Shown in pieces: positions 26-4,914 of a stretch of 4,914 nt of DNA. Both the position numbers and the translations under genes were made by a program. A model generated the notes under the pieces. It was not told the DNA's origin. It was given only the letters and a program-made list of their open reading frames with translations, and did no database searches. Positions within the stretch are counted from its first letter, which is position 1. Each line of letters opens with the position of its first letter. The DNA comes from a virus (lineage: Duplodnaviria > Heunggongvirae > Uroviricota > Caudoviricetes), in the IMG/VR virus record IMGVR_UViG_2734482547_000011; one strand, written 5' to 3'.

Positions 26-214
26 TTAAAAAAAGAACAAATGGTAGTGTCCGCTATTGCCAGTACACCTCAGGGTATAAGGGGTTATGGCCACCGGACT
101 ACCAAACGGCTGCCAGCCCTCTTTCAGTTTATGTGTCAGCTTTTCCGCAAGATCTGACGGCGGCGCCGCCCTGACAACATCATAGTGTTTAAATGCCATG
201 GTTCTTTCCACCAT
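26..214 (-). CDS. Small hypothetical phage protein (57-62 aa); possibly a conserved small lambdoid-prophage family, family name not confirmed
   Basis: ORF in six-frame track (MVERTMAFKHYDVVRAAPPSDLAEKLTHKLKEGWQPFGSPV...). An internal ATG at 197-199 (MAFKHYDV...) is preceded by GGTGGAAAG, a plausible SD, so the true start may be there. GC content is host-like, unlike the AT-rich DNA just upstream. Family assignment is from memory only. Confidence 0.45.
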   Translation of the reverse strand: MVERTMAFKHYDVVRAAPPSDLAEKLTHKLKEGWQPFGSPVAITPYTLRCTGNSGHYHLFFF

Positions 215-229
215 CTGAAAAATAATTCT
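212..229. repeat. Direct repeat copy 1: CATCTGAAAAATAATTCT
   Basis: Matches 366-383 (CATCAGAAAAATAATTCT) at 17 of 18 positions, with a 13-bp exact core GAAAAATAATTCT; seen directly in the sequence. Confidence 0.6.
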
Positions 230-365
230 TTAAAATACCTGACATGTAATACAGAAAAAACACAAAACCATACCTTAAATAAAAACCTGATTATCAAGCA
301 GATATGCATGGATAAACTACAAGACGAGATATAAACCACCCTGCATTTAAATAAACAATAAACAA

Positions 366-383
366 CATCAGAAAAATAATTCT
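366..383. repeat. Direct repeat copy 2: CATCAGAAAAATAATTCT
   Basis: Second copy of the 18-bp direct repeat, lying just upstream of the candidate promoter of the 460-795 ORF. Confidence 0.6.
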
Positions 384-390
384 GCTCTAT

Positions 391-420
391 GGTTTACATT
401 CAAAAATATCATTTATACTT
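391..420 (+). promoter_or_regulatory. Candidate sigma70-like promoter for the 460-795 ORF
   Basis: TTTACA at 393-398 and TATACT at 414-419 with a 15-bp spacer (shorter than the optimal 17), in AT-rich DNA about 40 bp upstream of the ORF start. Sequence reading only. Confidence 0.25.
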
Positions 421-459
421 TTCAGAACATCACCAGCAAGGCATAAACAAGGAAACTAA

Positions 460-795
460 ATGAAGTGGATTGTGATTGATACAGTTATCCAGCCATCATG
501 CGGAATATCTTTTTCAGTCATATGGAGTAAAATAAAATTAATAATCTGGTATCAATCGGATGCTTTCTTACCTCCTGAAAGTATATTTACACTGACTCAC
601 ACAGGCATCATGCTCAATAACAAAGTGCTACCTGTAACCATTTACAACGTAGTACCATTCAATAAAACATTCTGGAATTCAATCAAAAATAGCCAGGAAT
701 GCCCTACAAATACAGATAACGTATTGAATGAATGCTTTAATAACCGTTGCACTCTGCAAATATGTCCTTATGGACTAAAACAACAAAGTCCATAA
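460..795 (+). CDS. Hypothetical orphan protein, 111 aa, AT-rich, with a Cys-containing C-terminal region (moron-like cargo gene)
   Basis: 336-nt ORF in roughly 30-35% GC DNA, where stop codons are frequent, so an open frame of this length is unlikely by chance. AAGGA lies 7 nt upstream of the ATG. It is transcribed opposite to the phage late operon. A perfect 20-bp palindrome follows 36 nt after the stop. The C-terminus has 4 Cys ([26 protein letters not shown]). I recognise no family. Confidence 0.45.
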
Positions 796-830
796 GGAGT
801 TTACTCACATCTGACAAAATCAATATAAAC

Positions 831-850
831 AGCCCCTCCGGAGAGGGGCT
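831..850 (-). terminator. Perfect 20-bp palindrome AGCCCCTCCGGAGAGGGGCT (8-bp GC-rich stem, 4-nt loop); possible terminator or insulating hairpin
   Basis: Arms are exact reverse complements. On the minus strand the hairpin is followed by GTTTATATTGATTTTG (T-rich); on the plus strand there is no T-run. It sits between convergent transcription units. Confidence 0.35.
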
Positions 851-1242
851 GGAGAGTGGCGCTATGTGCCATTGCATGGTGCCGGGTGCCTCCCGGTGAA
901 TTCAGTACCAGCACCTGAATCCGCGATTATCCCATATACCTACTCGCTGATTGCCCCTCCGCACAGGGGGATTCACCATGCCAGTTTCTTTTAACAAACT
1001 CCCCGCAAACCAGACAACAGTCAACCGCCTGAATTGTGAAGTATTTAAAAATTTCTCCCGCTAACTGATACCCGGCTAACAGTCTGGCGTTTTCTTTTTC
1101 AGCAACGGGAAAGCAACAACCACCACACCCGCCACCAGCACACCGTCAGCCAGCACTGACATTATCCGGCTGCTGCAATGCCATTCACAAAAACAGTAAG
1201 CAATCACTTTTTACCGTAACAGGTGATAATCCAGATATGTAT

Positions 1243-1596
1243 CTACCCCAGATGAGTAATCCGAAGTTCATCCATACCACAGGTCCTGGCTATTCTGTTG
1301 TACTCCTGAACAAGAGCAAATAATTCTGAATTAGCAACCATGAACTCATCGCAAACCCTCTGTATAGCATCACTATTCAGAATAATAACGTCTCTTCCCG
1401 AAAGACGATCAGGAGTACAGAACAAAACTGTCAAACGGCTGAAGGCCTTTGCTCGTGCTGCATTGACTATATCAATACGCTGCCTAAGGATGAAACACCC
1501 CGACGCCTCATCAATATTCACTCTACCCACACCATATGAATGATAAATATTTAATGCTGAAAAAACCATTAGACCGTATAACAAACACTCAATCAA
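1243..1596 (-). CDS. Doubtful ORF (117 aa from a TTG start, 108 aa from the first ATG); hypothetical or degraded
   Basis: ORF track only. The start codon at 1596 is TTG, there is no convincing SD before either TTG or the first ATG (1567-1569), and I recognise no family. It occupies the position where stx-phages carry cargo. Confidence 0.2.
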   Translation of the reverse strand: MIECLLYGLMVFSALNIYHSYGVGRVNIDEASGCFILRQRIDIVNAARAKAFSRLTVLFCTPDRLSGRDVIILNSDAIQRVCDEFMVANSELFALVQEYNRIARTCGMDELRITHLG

Positions 1597-2061: not shown

Positions 2062-2916
2062 TTATGACGAATTTACCACAGATTCCGGAAAAATCAACCT
2101 AGTTACCTTTTTTAACTGCCGCTCAGCCCATGCTTCTTCAATATCAAACCGAGTCACCAGCGCATCATAGAATTTCTTAACTGTTTTTTCCCATGACGCG
2201 CGTGTTATCTGGTTTGTCACCTCGCATATAGCATTAAATGCCTCCGTTGATGGTAGTCTTTCATAGCCACGACCACCACAACGCTGGCAGTCTCTGATAA
2301 CAGGCATACCACGTTTTACCGACTCTTCACGATGAATGGCGACACCACGCCCACGGCAATCCTTACAGGCGGTGGAAACCTCACCCTTTCCGCCACACTC
2401 CGGACAGGCAACTTTTACCACCTCCCTGACTTTTTTCCATTCTTCCCAGTAAGACGGATACACACCTTTCGTACACTTTGCCCATACCGGCGGCTTACCA
2501 TCCGGATACTGGACCTTGTTTGTAAAAACTACGCTTTCAATAAATTTTTCCCCATAGCAACAAGGGCACTGCTTTTTACTCGCTGCGCTGCGGGCATAAT
2601 CCTCAAAAGCGTACGAAGCCATAATGCGCATCACTACCGGTTTTATTTCTGCCGGAAGTTTTCTCAACGCCGCCACACGATCGCACCGACTGAGTGCATA
2701 ATCTGCCAGTAATTCTGTTGCCCGCGCCCTGTCATTCATACTGATGCCCATTTTCCCCAGGAACGCAGAAAACCCCATCTCAGCCCGATTCTGTGTCATG
2801 CCCTGCGCGGCCATCACATCAGTGATACTCAGCGCATCTTTTGACGTTGAGGCCGATGCATCGGTCAGGCAAGGGGATTTTGGGGAGTAGTATTTCGGTA
2901 AATCTTCCAGTTTCAT
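2062..2916 (-). CDS. Phage late-gene antitermination protein Q-like, 284 aa, with three CxxC-G-x-G zinc-knuckle motifs
   Basis: Canonical ATG with a 4-nt ATGA overlap onto the rusA stop. Position (after rusA, before terminator and tRNA cluster) matches lambdoid Q. Motifs CPECGGKG, CKDCRGRG and CQRCGGRG indicate a zinc-binding domain. Functional call is from gene order and recalled family features, not a search. Confidence 0.6.
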   Translation of the reverse strand: MKLEDLPKYYSPKSPCLTDASASTSKDALSITDVMAAQGMTQNRAEMGFSAFLGKMGISMNDRARATELLADYALSRCDRVAALRKLPAEIKPVVMRIMASYAFEDYARSAASKKQCPCCYGEKFIESVVFTNKVQYPDGKPPVWAKCTKGVYPSYWEEWKKVREVVKVACPECGGKGEVSTACKDCRGRGVAIHREESVKRGMPVIRDCQRCGGRGYERLPSTEAFNAICEVTNQITRASWEKTVKKFYDALVTRFDIEEAWAERQLKKVTRLIFPESVVNSS

Positions 2917-3287
2917 TTTTTGACCTGCTCTTCATGCATTATGGGGTAAATCTTCACCCCCAGACGTCCACCAGATACTGGCTGACCACGAACGATATTG
3001 ATTTCATCAAACTGCTCATCGTCCATTAACACTCCCGCATGTGTCAGTGCATCCAGTGGTGCTTTCAGGATATTGTCCAGGTCACGACGGCGCTTATCCG
3101 GTGGCTCTGCAATAATCTTTATCGCCAGTCTTCCGGACAGGCTTAATTTCAGTCGCTGCTGACGGACAATAAGCGCCACATCCCGGCGATAACGCTCACC
3201 GGCTTTTGATACAAAATATGTGTTGTCACGACGTCGCCAGTAAGTATTCACCGTCGGCGGATAAGGTAAAATAAACTCATGGCGCAT
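2913..3287 (-). CDS. rusA: RusA-family Holliday junction resolvase (crossover junction endodeoxyribonuclease)
   Basis: 124 aa. Blocks LPYPPTVNTYWRRR, VSKAGERYRRDVALIV, PDKRRRDLDNILKAPLDALTHAGVLMDDEQF and SGGRLGVKI align with recalled E. coli RusA (LPWPPSNNRYYR..., [40 protein letters not shown]). Start ATG overlaps the upstream stop (TGATG). Confidence 0.88.
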   Translation of the reverse strand: MRHEFILPYPPTVNTYWRRRDNTYFVSKAGERYRRDVALIVRQQRLKLSLSGRLAIKIIAEPPDKRRRDLDNILKAPLDALTHAGVLMDDEQFDEINIVRGQPVSGGRLGVKIYPIMHEEQVKK

Positions 3288-3544: not shown

Positions 3545-3664
3545 AAGAAACGCTCCATCTTACTGCTGTCAGTTCGTTTATTACTGTATCTGCGCGGATT
3601 GCCGGGCTTCATGGGAGTGGAAAGCACCCGTGCACTTTCCTGGTCCACAGGCAGAAAATGTCCG

Positions 3665-3820
3665 TAGACTGGCCCCCTGAATCTCCAGACAACCAGTATC
3701 ACTTAAATAAGTGATAGTCTTAATACTAGTTTTTAGACTAGTCATTGGAGTACAGATGATTGATGTCTTAGGGCCGGAGAAACGCAGACGGCGTACCACA
3801 CAGGAAAAGATCGCAATTGT
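3665..3820 (+). mobile_element. IS2 left-end fragment (156 bp: terminal inverted repeat plus the first ~21 codons of insC), truncated
   Basis: Identical over 156 bp to the IS2 end at 4374-4529 (TAGACTGGCCCCCTGAATCTCCAGACAACC...), then diverges at 3821. Confidence 0.85.
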
Positions 3821-4143
<323 letters not shown>

Positions 4144-4373
4144 NNNNNNNNNNNNNNNNNNNNNNNNNNNNNNNNNNNNNNNNNNNNNNNNNNNNNNNNN
4201 NNNNNNNNNNNNNNNNNNNNNNNNNNNNNNNNNNNNNNNNNNNNNNNNNNNNNNNNNNNNNNNNNNNNNNNNNNNNNNNNNNNNNNNNNNNNNNNNNNNN
4301 NNNNNNNNNNNNNNNNNNNNNNNNNNNNNNNNNNNNNNNNNNNNNNNNNNNNNNNNNNNNNNNNNNNNNNNNN
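4144..4373. other. Assembly gap (230 N)
   Basis: Uninterrupted run of N; the flanking sequences are both IS-derived repeats. Confidence 0.99.
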
Positions 4374-4464
4374 TAGACTGGCCCCCTGAATCTCCAGACA
4401 ACCAGTATCACTTAAATAAGTGATAGTCTTAATACTAGTTTTTAGACTAGTCATTGGAGTACAG

Positions 4465-4830
4465 ATGATTGATGTCTTAGGGCCGGAGAAACGCAGACGG
4501 CGTACCACACAGGAAAAGATCGCAATTGTTCAGCAGAGCTTTGAACCGGGGATGACGGTCTCCCTCGTTGCCCGGCAACATGGTGTAGCAGCCAGCCAGT
4601 TATTTCTCTGGCGTAAGCAATACCAGGAAGGAAGTCTTACTGCTGTCGCCGCCGGAGAACAGGTTGTTCCTGCCTCTGAACTTGCTGCCGCCATGAAGCA
4701 GATTAAAGAACTCCAGCGCCTGCTCGGCAAGAAAACGATGGAAAATGAACTCCTCAAAGAAGCCGTTGAATATGGACGGGCAAAAAAGTGGATAGCGCAC
4801 GCGCCCTTATTGCCCGGGGATGGGGAGTAA
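4465..4830 (+). CDS. insC: IS2 transposase OrfA (InsC), 121 aa
   Basis: Translation [56 protein letters not shown]... matches recalled IS2 InsC. True start is the ATG at 4465, not the upstream ATG at 4420 used in the ORF track. Confidence 0.9.
4782..4788 (+). promoter_or_regulatory. Programmed -1 ribosomal frameshift site A_AAA_AAG (IS2 OrfA to OrfAB)
   Basis: The heptamer A AAA AAG is in the insC zero frame, and the -1 frame continues open as [42 protein letters not shown] (InsD N-terminus). Confidence 0.8.
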
Positions 4831-4914
4831 GCTTAGTCAGCCGTTGTCTCCGGGTGTCGCGTGCGCAGTTGCACGTCATTCTCAGACGAACCGATGACTG
4901 GATGGATGGCCGCC
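4788..4914 (+). CDS. insD: IS2 transposase OrfB (InsD), N-terminal part; 3' end outside the window
   Basis: The -1 frame relative to insC is open from 4788 to the window end, and the translation matches the recalled InsD N-terminus. Confidence 0.8.

Follow-up and report, generated by a model that had tools for sequence, protein, structure and literature searches.

A probable iraL anti-adaptor gene as moron cargo of a decayed lambdoid prophage

Organization of the locus

The window—the whole stretch of 4,914 nucleotides that was analysed—belongs to a decayed, IS-riddled lambdoid prophage. It features a short AT-rich segment with a single open reading frame on the plus strand, framed by phage genes on the minus strand and by insertion sequences at both ends:

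1–72, IS600
26–214, minus strand, left flank with a DUF1737 remnant ORF (Pfam PF08410, 1.5e-15), cut by IS600 at ~72
201–830, iraL-specific AT-rich cassette (moron), comprising the CDS with its promoter, ~260 bp of DNA upstream and 35 bp on the 3′ side
449–453, plus strand, AAGGA ribosome-binding site by direct reading of the sequence, with the ATG 6 nt on
460–795, plus strand, CDS of 111 aa with ATG start and TAA stop, very probably iraL
821–1010, minus strand, STnc100-family prophage sRNA (Rfam RF02076, full model 1–206, 132.4 bits; gathering score 47)
2062–2916, minus strand, antiterminator Q (284 aa)
2913–3287, minus strand, RusA
minus strand, tRNA-Met(CAT) and tRNA-Arg(TCT)
minus strand, phrog_2873 ORF and DUF3927/TciB-like ORF
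3664–4914, IS2 and IS21 fragments

The segment 4374–4914 was also considered as an IS66-family element, which was rejected since BLAST shows IS2. The orientation of the frame against RusA, Q, and the tRNAs bears out the earlier note, made from the letters of the window, which had described a gene running opposite to the phage late operon.

The open reading frame is coding

The frame had been put forward as a 336-nt ORF that is unlikely to arise by chance in DNA of about 30–35% GC and that carries a well-spaced AAGGA ribosome-binding site. The site lies where expected, and the GC content agrees with 34.5% for the ORF and 32.2% for the segment 201–830, compared with 47–52% for the flanks. When 201–830 was shuffled 5000 times with its dinucleotides preserved, an ORF of at least 111 codons turned up 37 times (p ~0.007), so that the length alone is moderately improbable, not overwhelmingly so. 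The GC level across the codon positions of the ORF is flat.

The coding status was further judged on 85 related loci, mostly from IMG/VR viral contigs, 81 of which were scored via an exact match of the start string. All 81 retain the intact 111-codon frame, leaving no frameshifted or stop-containing orthologue among the scored loci, and so does an additional full-length locus (L006) that falls outside this set because of a start-string mismatch. Nine of the 11 segregating sites in the CDS are synonymous, and the polymorphism density amounts to 39 per kb in the CDS and to 160–190 per kb in the flanks, hence a 4–5-fold reduction. As judged by this pattern of variation, the CDS is under purifying selection, and the related loci provide stronger evidence for coding than the ORF length alone. 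A chance open frame within AT-rich non-coding DNA, for which the moderate length statistics and the flat codon-position GC could be quoted, is vanishingly improbable: this reading is refuted by the match to a named protein family (NF007393), by the bias toward synonymous variation together with the reduced polymorphism, by a solved homologue (8twd_A), and by published data on the protein level (PMC4045071).

Assignment to the IraM/IraL family

The 111-aa protein had been regarded as an orphan that could not be placed in any family. This does not hold: a profile search assigns it to NCBIfam NF007393 ("anti-adapter protein IraM"), the score being 162 bits with a cut-off of 121, and the alignment covers residues 1–110 of 111 on profile positions 1–113 of 114. 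The protein is identical to IraL of CFT073 (c1429, WP_000871291.1) in 110 of 111 residues—the sole change being L74S—and shares 61% identity with K-12 IraM (YcgW, b1160), ungapped over 107 residues. A phmmer search matches PDB 8twd_A, namely IraM 1–78 bound to RssB, with E=6e-31. E. coli 042 and CFT073 carry the region of 861 bp around the gene at 99% identity or more, and in both genomes PGAP names the gene "anti-adapter protein IraM," a label that this automatic annotation gives it in about 1400 complete E. coli genomes. PHROGs phrog_4407 matches over the full length with 241 bits under the label "unknown function." Pfam scans of the protein yielded no meaningful family at E≤0.01 or at E≤10; PF11183, which we take to be the PmrD family, is listed among the precomputed database hits for its relatives.

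ORF 460–795 is, hence, very probably iraL, an RpoS-stabilizing prophage moron whose product belongs with IraM, IraL, and RssC among the RssB anti-adaptors. The gene is already known from lambda-like prophages of E. coli and Shigella, and its promoter, RssB-binding activity, and distribution were published in 2014. In that work (Hryckowian et al. 2014, mBio; PMC4045071), IraL of CFT073 was reported to bind RssB and to stabilize RpoS in logarithmic phase. Deletion of iraL lowers the log-phase level and stability of RpoS in CFT073 and the RpoS level in Shigella sonnei. IraL was described as active in unstressed log phase, with RssB contacts differing from those of IraM and an IraL–IraM identity of 58.9%, and its site in CFT073 was termed the "potB genomic island" (PMC4045071).

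Promoter and transcription start

The putative promoter was placed from the published transcription start site (TSS; PMC4045071), which was transferred to the window via sequence identity:

393–419, plus strand, sigma-70-type iraL promoter
393–398, plus strand, candidate −35 element TTTACA, with a 15-nt spacer
414–419, plus strand, −10 element TATACT, placed from the published TSS
427, plus strand, iraL TSS from 5′-RACE in CFT073

The 5′-RACE mRNA end in log-phase CFT073 reads ACATCACCAGCAAGGCATAAACAAGGAAACCA (PMC4045071), and window positions 427–458 read ACATCACCAGCAAGGCATAAACAAGGAAACTA, matching in 31 of 32 bases. The published transcript start, ACATCACCAGCAAGG…, falls on window base 427, in line with the transcript start near 420–430 anticipated in the earlier note. 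The promoter is identical in E. coli 042 (130 bp upstream) and differs by 1 base in CFT073. The alternative −35 registers GTTTAC and GGTTTA (~391–398) give spacers of 16 and 17 nt, respectively, and 19 of the 85 loci show a deletion or a polymorphism at C397.

The spacer of the iraL promoter is non-optimal. A strict consensus promoter scan passed over it; the scan made three calls, as many as expected by chance.

Regulatory sites were also sought. K-12 IraM is an RssB anti-adaptor reported to be induced by Mg2+ starvation via PhoP. The best PhoP-box candidate matches in 11 of 12 positions on the minus strand at 348–364; since at least one such match occurs in 22 of 200 shuffles, it is not significant and was discarded. 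The half-site GGTTTA at 391–396 has no partner. IraL rises in a fur mutant of CFT073; a Fur box was rejected, the best match in the window reaching 11 of 19 positions.

RssB-contact residues and the Cys-rich tail

The structure of the IraM–RssB complex (PDB 8TWD) defines 14 contact residues of IraM in three clusters, and the N-terminal domain of IraM features a PmrD-like fold (PMC10844676). The window protein carries ten of the 14 contact residues unchanged, and the other four are conservative substitutions (T13S, L75I, H63N, and I64V). Cluster I is identical in all 5 residues; cluster II in three of five, with T13S and L75I; and cluster III in two of four, with H63N and I64V. An AF2 model based on the 16-sequence alignment features a strand-rich part (residues 3–66) and a helix (69–76) at a mean pLDDT of 59.9. 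Searching with this low-confidence model, Foldseek returns 8twd_A as the sole significant match (E=7e-6, TM 0.37–0.46).

The C-terminal part of the protein features four Cys residues in a CPx(9–11)Cx(4–5)Cx4CPYG motif, giving substance to the Cys-containing C terminus that the earlier note had pointed out. None of the 16 aligned family members departs from C81, C92, C97, and C102, and the homologues from Citrobacter and Escherichia sp. have the four Cys as well. They lie outside the crystallized IraM fragment, which was truncated because of the proteolytic instability of the tail (PMC10844676). The AF2 model is uninformative on the Cys-rich tail, with pLDDT values below 50 over residues 80–96 and 103–111. 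The invariant Cx10Cx4Cx4C motif could act as a metal- or redox-sensing switch over protein stability.

The hydrophobic N-terminal region described earlier is real; however, it resembles neither a transmembrane segment nor a signal peptide. The maximum 19-residue Kyte–Doolittle mean is 1.44, below the usual transmembrane-helix threshold of 1.6, an Asp occupies position 7, and the region aligns residue for residue with the cytoplasmic β-barrel of IraM that was solved with RssB (8TWD), so that the hydrophobicity corresponds to the β-strands of this barrel. A product acting as a defence, anti-defence, secreted, or membrane protein is accordingly very improbable. Such a role could be suspected from the hydrophobic N terminus, from the PHROGs label, and from the slot between Q and the lysis genes, which is often home to such cargo. 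However, the barrel alignment and the hydropathy contradict it, PADLOC defence-protein models gave no match for the 111-aa protein at E≤0.01, and a specific cytoplasmic function was demonstrated experimentally (PMC4045071). The defence or anti-defence function proposed earlier thus finds no support, whereas the proposal of lysogenic conversion was right in spirit, iraL rewiring the general stress response of the host.

The L74S allele

The exact window protein occurs on at least 999 contigs under the name "MULTISPECIES anti-adapter protein IraM [Shigella]." Among complete E. coli genomes (n=5426), the exact window sequence is absent, the best match being 99.4%. Taken together with the IS600, IS2, and IS21 fragments, this points to a Shigella chromosome as the most likely source of the window. 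S74 is unique among the 16 aligned family members, the other 15 having Leu or Ile, and adjoins RssB-contact residue 75 (L75 of IraM, in cluster II). This substitution is the only reason for doubting full activity of the IraL encoded in the window.

The gene could be iraL by descent and yet encode an inactive or weakened allele, L74S disrupting the C-terminal helix in a prophage dismantled by insertion sequences. The replacement of an otherwise invariant Leu/Ile beside a contact residue speaks for this, as do the interruption of the prophage by IS600, IS2, and IS21 and the iraM pseudogene of another genome (L014), which indicates that decay happens in this family. A weakened allele is nevertheless improbable: the exact protein, found on at least 999 contigs and named as a multispecies Shigella protein, has become fixed across a large lineage in which the frame is intact; promoter, ribosome-binding site, and TSS are the same as in E. 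coli 042; and the phenotype of the S. sonnei ΔiraL mutant favours function (PMC4045071). We infer that the S. sonnei strain of that study carries S74. The Shigella L74S allele, thus taken as a functional iraL, presumably behaves like IraL of CFT073.

The palindrome, STnc100, and the stop-codon hairpin

Two inverted repeats are found around the 3′ end of iraL:

765–798, plus strand, 12-bp perfect inverted repeat (arms 765–776 and 787–798, 10-nt loop) spanning the iraL stop codon
830–851, minus strand, palindrome forming the Rho-independent terminator of STnc100: 9-bp GC-rich stem (830–838 and 843–851), 4-nt loop, then TTTATATTGATTTT on the minus strand

The second repeat is the one described in the earlier note as a perfect palindrome with an 8-bp stem. 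It is real and perfect, but the stem comprises 9 bp. A terminator scan calls it on the minus strand alone, with the T-rich tail TTTATATTGA, and its alignment to the STnc100 covariance model falls on the last stem and the U-tail. The two genes, iraL and STnc100, run toward each other, and 26 nt separate their 3′ ends. STnc100 occupies the same site in CFT073, Nil3, PhiR5_1, and an O157 Stx2c prophage, and is absent at the K-12 iraM locus. The palindrome is kept in phages that lack iraL, and the homology with these phages starts exactly there. It is, hence, part of the phage backbone, where it terminates STnc100 and bounds the iraL cassette on the right.

Taken as iraL's own terminator, the palindrome would complete an autonomous promoter–gene–terminator cassette. 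It lies 35 nt past the stop codon, the plus strand is A-rich just before it, and its folding energy is −19 to −20 kcal/mol on both strands, with a stable plus-strand fold at −19 kcal/mol. In addition, bidirectional terminators are often shared by convergent genes. However, the plus strand continues with GAGAGTGGCG and has no T run, and the T-tail on the minus strand, the STnc100 alignment, and the conserved position in phages without iraL assign it elsewhere. We regard this reading as possible but doubtful. As a stop for iraL, the palindrome serves at most as a shared, bidirectional one, and the STnc100 terminator remains its assignment.

STnc100 copies in EDL933 are transcribed, one of them confirmed by Northern blot (PMC5331693), and the sRNA was detected in vesicles of STEC (PMC12370729). 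A 2026 preprint relates STnc100 to PasD; its function is hypothetical in the literature. One related locus (L096) reproduces the position published for the sRNA, "75 nt downstream of stx2." Inspected by eye, the DNA upstream of 1010 shows no clear sigma-70 promoter, and STnc100 may be a 3′-UTR product of the DUF3927 gene. The near-overlapping 3′ ends could couple iraL and STnc100 via shared termination or antisense read-through.

The first repeat, which the earlier note had missed, folds as RNA with −17.5 kcal/mol and encodes the QQSP tail of IraL. No covariation is observed in this hairpin across the 85 loci: the common change A774G keeps a G–U pair, and two rarer changes break pairs.

Cassette boundaries and prophage context

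PhiR5_1, Nil3, and a Stx2a phage—all without iraL—match the window at 70–200 and from 831 onward, with ~231 bp of unrelated DNA in between. As these phages share only the two flanks, the cassette spans ~201–830, that is, ~630 bp at 32% GC, and coincides with the GC trough. At minimum, window 70–1039 is common to all iraL loci. On the left, the DUF1737 remnant represents the 5′ end of a nanS-p-type esterase gene of intact phages; its homologues are the start of the 662-aa PhiR5_1 gene and the SASA esterase of the Stx2c prophage, and in 042 and CFT073 it is a pseudogene. Directly beyond this flank, 042 and CFT073 carry holin, lysozyme, Rz, and terminase. Since the left flank runs into the lysis genes in these genomes, iraL lies in the Q-to-S cargo region, in opposite orientation.

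The reading of iraL as a moron, lying in the cargo region between Q and the lysis genes, holds, with three of the four classical hallmarks of a moron present. The cassette is present or absent between conserved flanks, as seen in the three iraL-less phages, and its base composition is distinct (32% versus 47–52% GC). An own promoter is indicated by the identity of the promoter and TSS sequences, with expression taken from the literature. An own terminator is the missing hallmark, the plus strand having no terminator-like site. Thus, the "classic moron layout" proposed earlier is largely right: the low-GC cassette and the promoter stand, and the cassette is absent from phages that share the flanks, but the palindrome belongs to another gene.

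Proposed mechanism

The mechanism of iraL in the window is most likely the published one of RssB anti-adaptors, because ten of the 14 RssB contact residues are identical and four conservative. RssB binding, RpoS stabilization, the TSS, and the IraM–RssB structure enter this model from the literature; the present analysis contributes the family assignment, the close identity to the tested protein, the conserved contact residues, the matching promoter, the limits of the cassette, and the purifying selection. Having a sigma-70-type promoter of its own, iraL would be read against the direction of the phage late operon and without depending on it, and would therefore be expressed in the lysogen during growth. 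The predicted N-terminal β-barrel of IraL (~residues 1–78, PmrD-like fold) would bind RssB, clamping the α4–β5–α5 face of the receiver domain, the linker, and the C-terminal domain. RssB bound in this way would exclude RpoS and, hence, block its hand-over to ClpXP. RpoS would then accumulate, and the general stress regulon would be active even in log phase.

Distribution and wider reading

Among complete E. coli genomes, 4758 of 5426 have a family member. Sorted by best match, 1415 records are iraL-type (at least 95% nucleotide identity) and 3332 iraM-type or intermediate (60–80%); 27 records fall at 90–95% and 1 at 80–90%. Relatives are encoded by 4 deposited phage genomes as well as by 267 viral contigs of IMG/VR, an otherwise intact phage with iraL being vB_EcoS-640R1, and further homologues in E. 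albertii, Citrobacter (54%), and Escherichia sp. (33%). Protein clusters at 88%, 75%, 69%, and 65% identity span the gap between IraL and IraM, which was reported empty in 2014 (PMC4045071). The member in O157:H7 strain 17B6-2 has 74% identity and is directly flanked by stx2cB and the nanS-p-type esterase. Literature searches found no experimental data on the protein of the O157:H7 Stx2c prophage (WP_001303568.1) and nothing relevant linking IraM or IraL with morons or Stx2 phages.

The position of iraL in this window, the 74% allele behind stx2cB, and the 88%, 75%, and 69% intermediates motivate a wider conjecture: the IraM family as a whole might be cargo of the lambdoid-phage "stx slot," always tail-to-tail with STnc100, and the Cys switch together with the coupling of iraL and STnc100 would then link phage state, sRNA, and RpoS level. 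We consider this unlikely. The family member directly beside stx2c in O157:H7 would let RpoS control and toxin genes travel together. For annotation, phrog_4407 is still labelled as of unknown function in PHROGs despite a characterized member. In addition, the locus serves as a calibration case, in which a reader without tools recognized a moron and the TSS to within a few bases and left the gene unnamed.

Comparison with known systems

IraL of CFT073 is the closest known system. Besides the 110 of 111 shared residues, it has the promoter and TSS sequence and the lambdoid-prophage slot in common with the window, including the flanks: the DUF1737 remnant on one side; STnc100, DUF3927, and the tRNAs on the other. 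The window differs by the L74S substitution of the Shigella allele, by the truncation of its prophage by IS600, IS2, and IS21, and by a Q allele of 284 aa instead of 273 aa. The CFT073 site was published as a genomic island, not as a phage moron in the Shiga-toxin-gene slot.

K-12 IraM shares all four C-terminal Cys residues with the window protein. In contrast to iraL, its gene has a different promoter region and is located next to e14 in a context without STnc100, and IraM lacks the 4-residue QQSP tail that the inverted repeat contributes to IraL; the 765–798 hairpin is absent from K-12 iraM.

PmrD gives its name to the fold described for the N-terminal domain of IraM (PMC10844676). The targets differ, being PmrA for PmrD and RssB for the family in the window, and our own Pfam scans of the window protein gave no PmrD-family match. 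The tail with four Cys is presumably missing in PmrD.

The STnc100/PasD prophage sRNAs are represented by window 821–1010 as a full-length match, which belongs to the phage backbone and not to the iraL cassette.

The gene of the O157:H7 Stx2c prophage (WP_001303568.1) lies immediately downstream of stx2cB and has neither the QQSP tail nor the 765–798 hairpin of iraL. It resembles iraL in its 74% identity and in its orientation, and the module has the same build: the 5′ end of the esterase, AT-rich upstream DNA, the gene itself, and the STnc100 terminator, with window 70–1039 aligning at 69%.

Insertion sequences at the window ends

The left end of the window consists of an IS600 end, and base 70 is where homology to every other iraL locus begins. 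The 72-bp IS600 end is also found, in inverted orientation, at the other end of L015, an IMG/VR contig gathered for comparison. From 3664 to 4914, nested IS debris takes the place of the prophage early region.

1-72: IS600 end, truncating a DUF1737 ORF (26-214)
~3664-3830: truncated left end of IS2
3879-4140, minus strand: istB fragment of IS21
4144-4373: masked run of N
4374-4914: another left end of IS2, including the first ORF of the element

Prophage genes downstream of iraL

The features below lie between iraL and the IS debris.

821-1010, minus strand: STnc100-family prophage sRNA (Rfam RF02076)
1076-1207: DUF3927/TciB-like ORF
1243-1596, minus strand: 117-aa ORF matching phrog_2873 (function unknown in PHROGs)
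1884-1959: tRNA with anticodon CAT

The sRNA matches its family model over the full length at 132 bits and is convergent with iraL. Because no obvious sigma-70 promoter was seen directly upstream of position 1010, on its 5′ side, STnc100 may be a 3′-UTR product of the DUF3927/TciB-like ORF. Residues 10–117 of the 117-aa ORF match phrog_2873 full-length at 234 bits, and PGAP annotates no gene at this position in E. coli 042 and CFT073, which carry the same iraL locus; this ORF is therefore probably a real but unannotated phage gene. ARAGORN calls the tRNA tRNA-Met; the annotations of E. coli 042 and CFT073 give it as tRNA-Ile. It is probably a lysidine-modified tRNA of the ileX/ileZ type—a type typical downstream of Q in lambdoid phages.

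Sites upstream of iraL

209-229 and 363-383: 21-nt direct repeat, CACCATCTGAAAAATAATTCT and CAACATCAGAAAAATAATTCT, 154 bp apart
348-364, minus strand: PhoP-box-like site, TGTTTATTGTTTATTTA, matching 11 of 12 specified bases

The cassette has the first repeat copy at its left edge; the second is just upstream of the iraL −35 element. K-12 iraM has been reported to be PhoP-dependent; the PhoP-box-like site, 63–79 bp upstream of the iraL transcription start, was not significant in a shuffling test (22/200).

IraM-family relatives

L096 (NZ_CP038414.1, E. coli O157:H7 17B6-2), 5001-5324, opposite strand: third IraM-family allele, WP_001303568.1
L014 (CP178306.1, E. coli), 6001-6318: disrupted iraM-type gene

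WP_001303568.1 is 74% identical to IraL, and its gene is located in an Stx2c prophage, directly between stx2cB/STnc100 and a nanS-p-like esterase gene. A literature search for a link between the IraM family and Stx phages found no paper. The gene in L014 is broken by frameshifts and stops, which shows, in this one genome, that the family can decay.

The IraL protein

679-681: L74S substitution (codon 74), marking the Shigella allele of IraL
700-795: Cys-bearing tail (residues 81–111)
765-798: perfect 12-bp inverted repeat spanning the iraL stop codon

Ser at position 74, which adjoins the RssB-contact residue 75, is unique to this allele; all other aligned members carry Leu or Ile. C81, C92, C97, and C102 are invariant across every family member and fall outside the only crystal structure, and the AF2 pLDDT of the tail that bears them is below 50; this tail is a possible metal-binding element. 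The inverted repeat appears to have arisen when the CPYGL codons were duplicated locally in inverted orientation, an event that would have created the C-terminal QQSP tail of IraL; IraM and the Stx2c-phage allele lack this tail.
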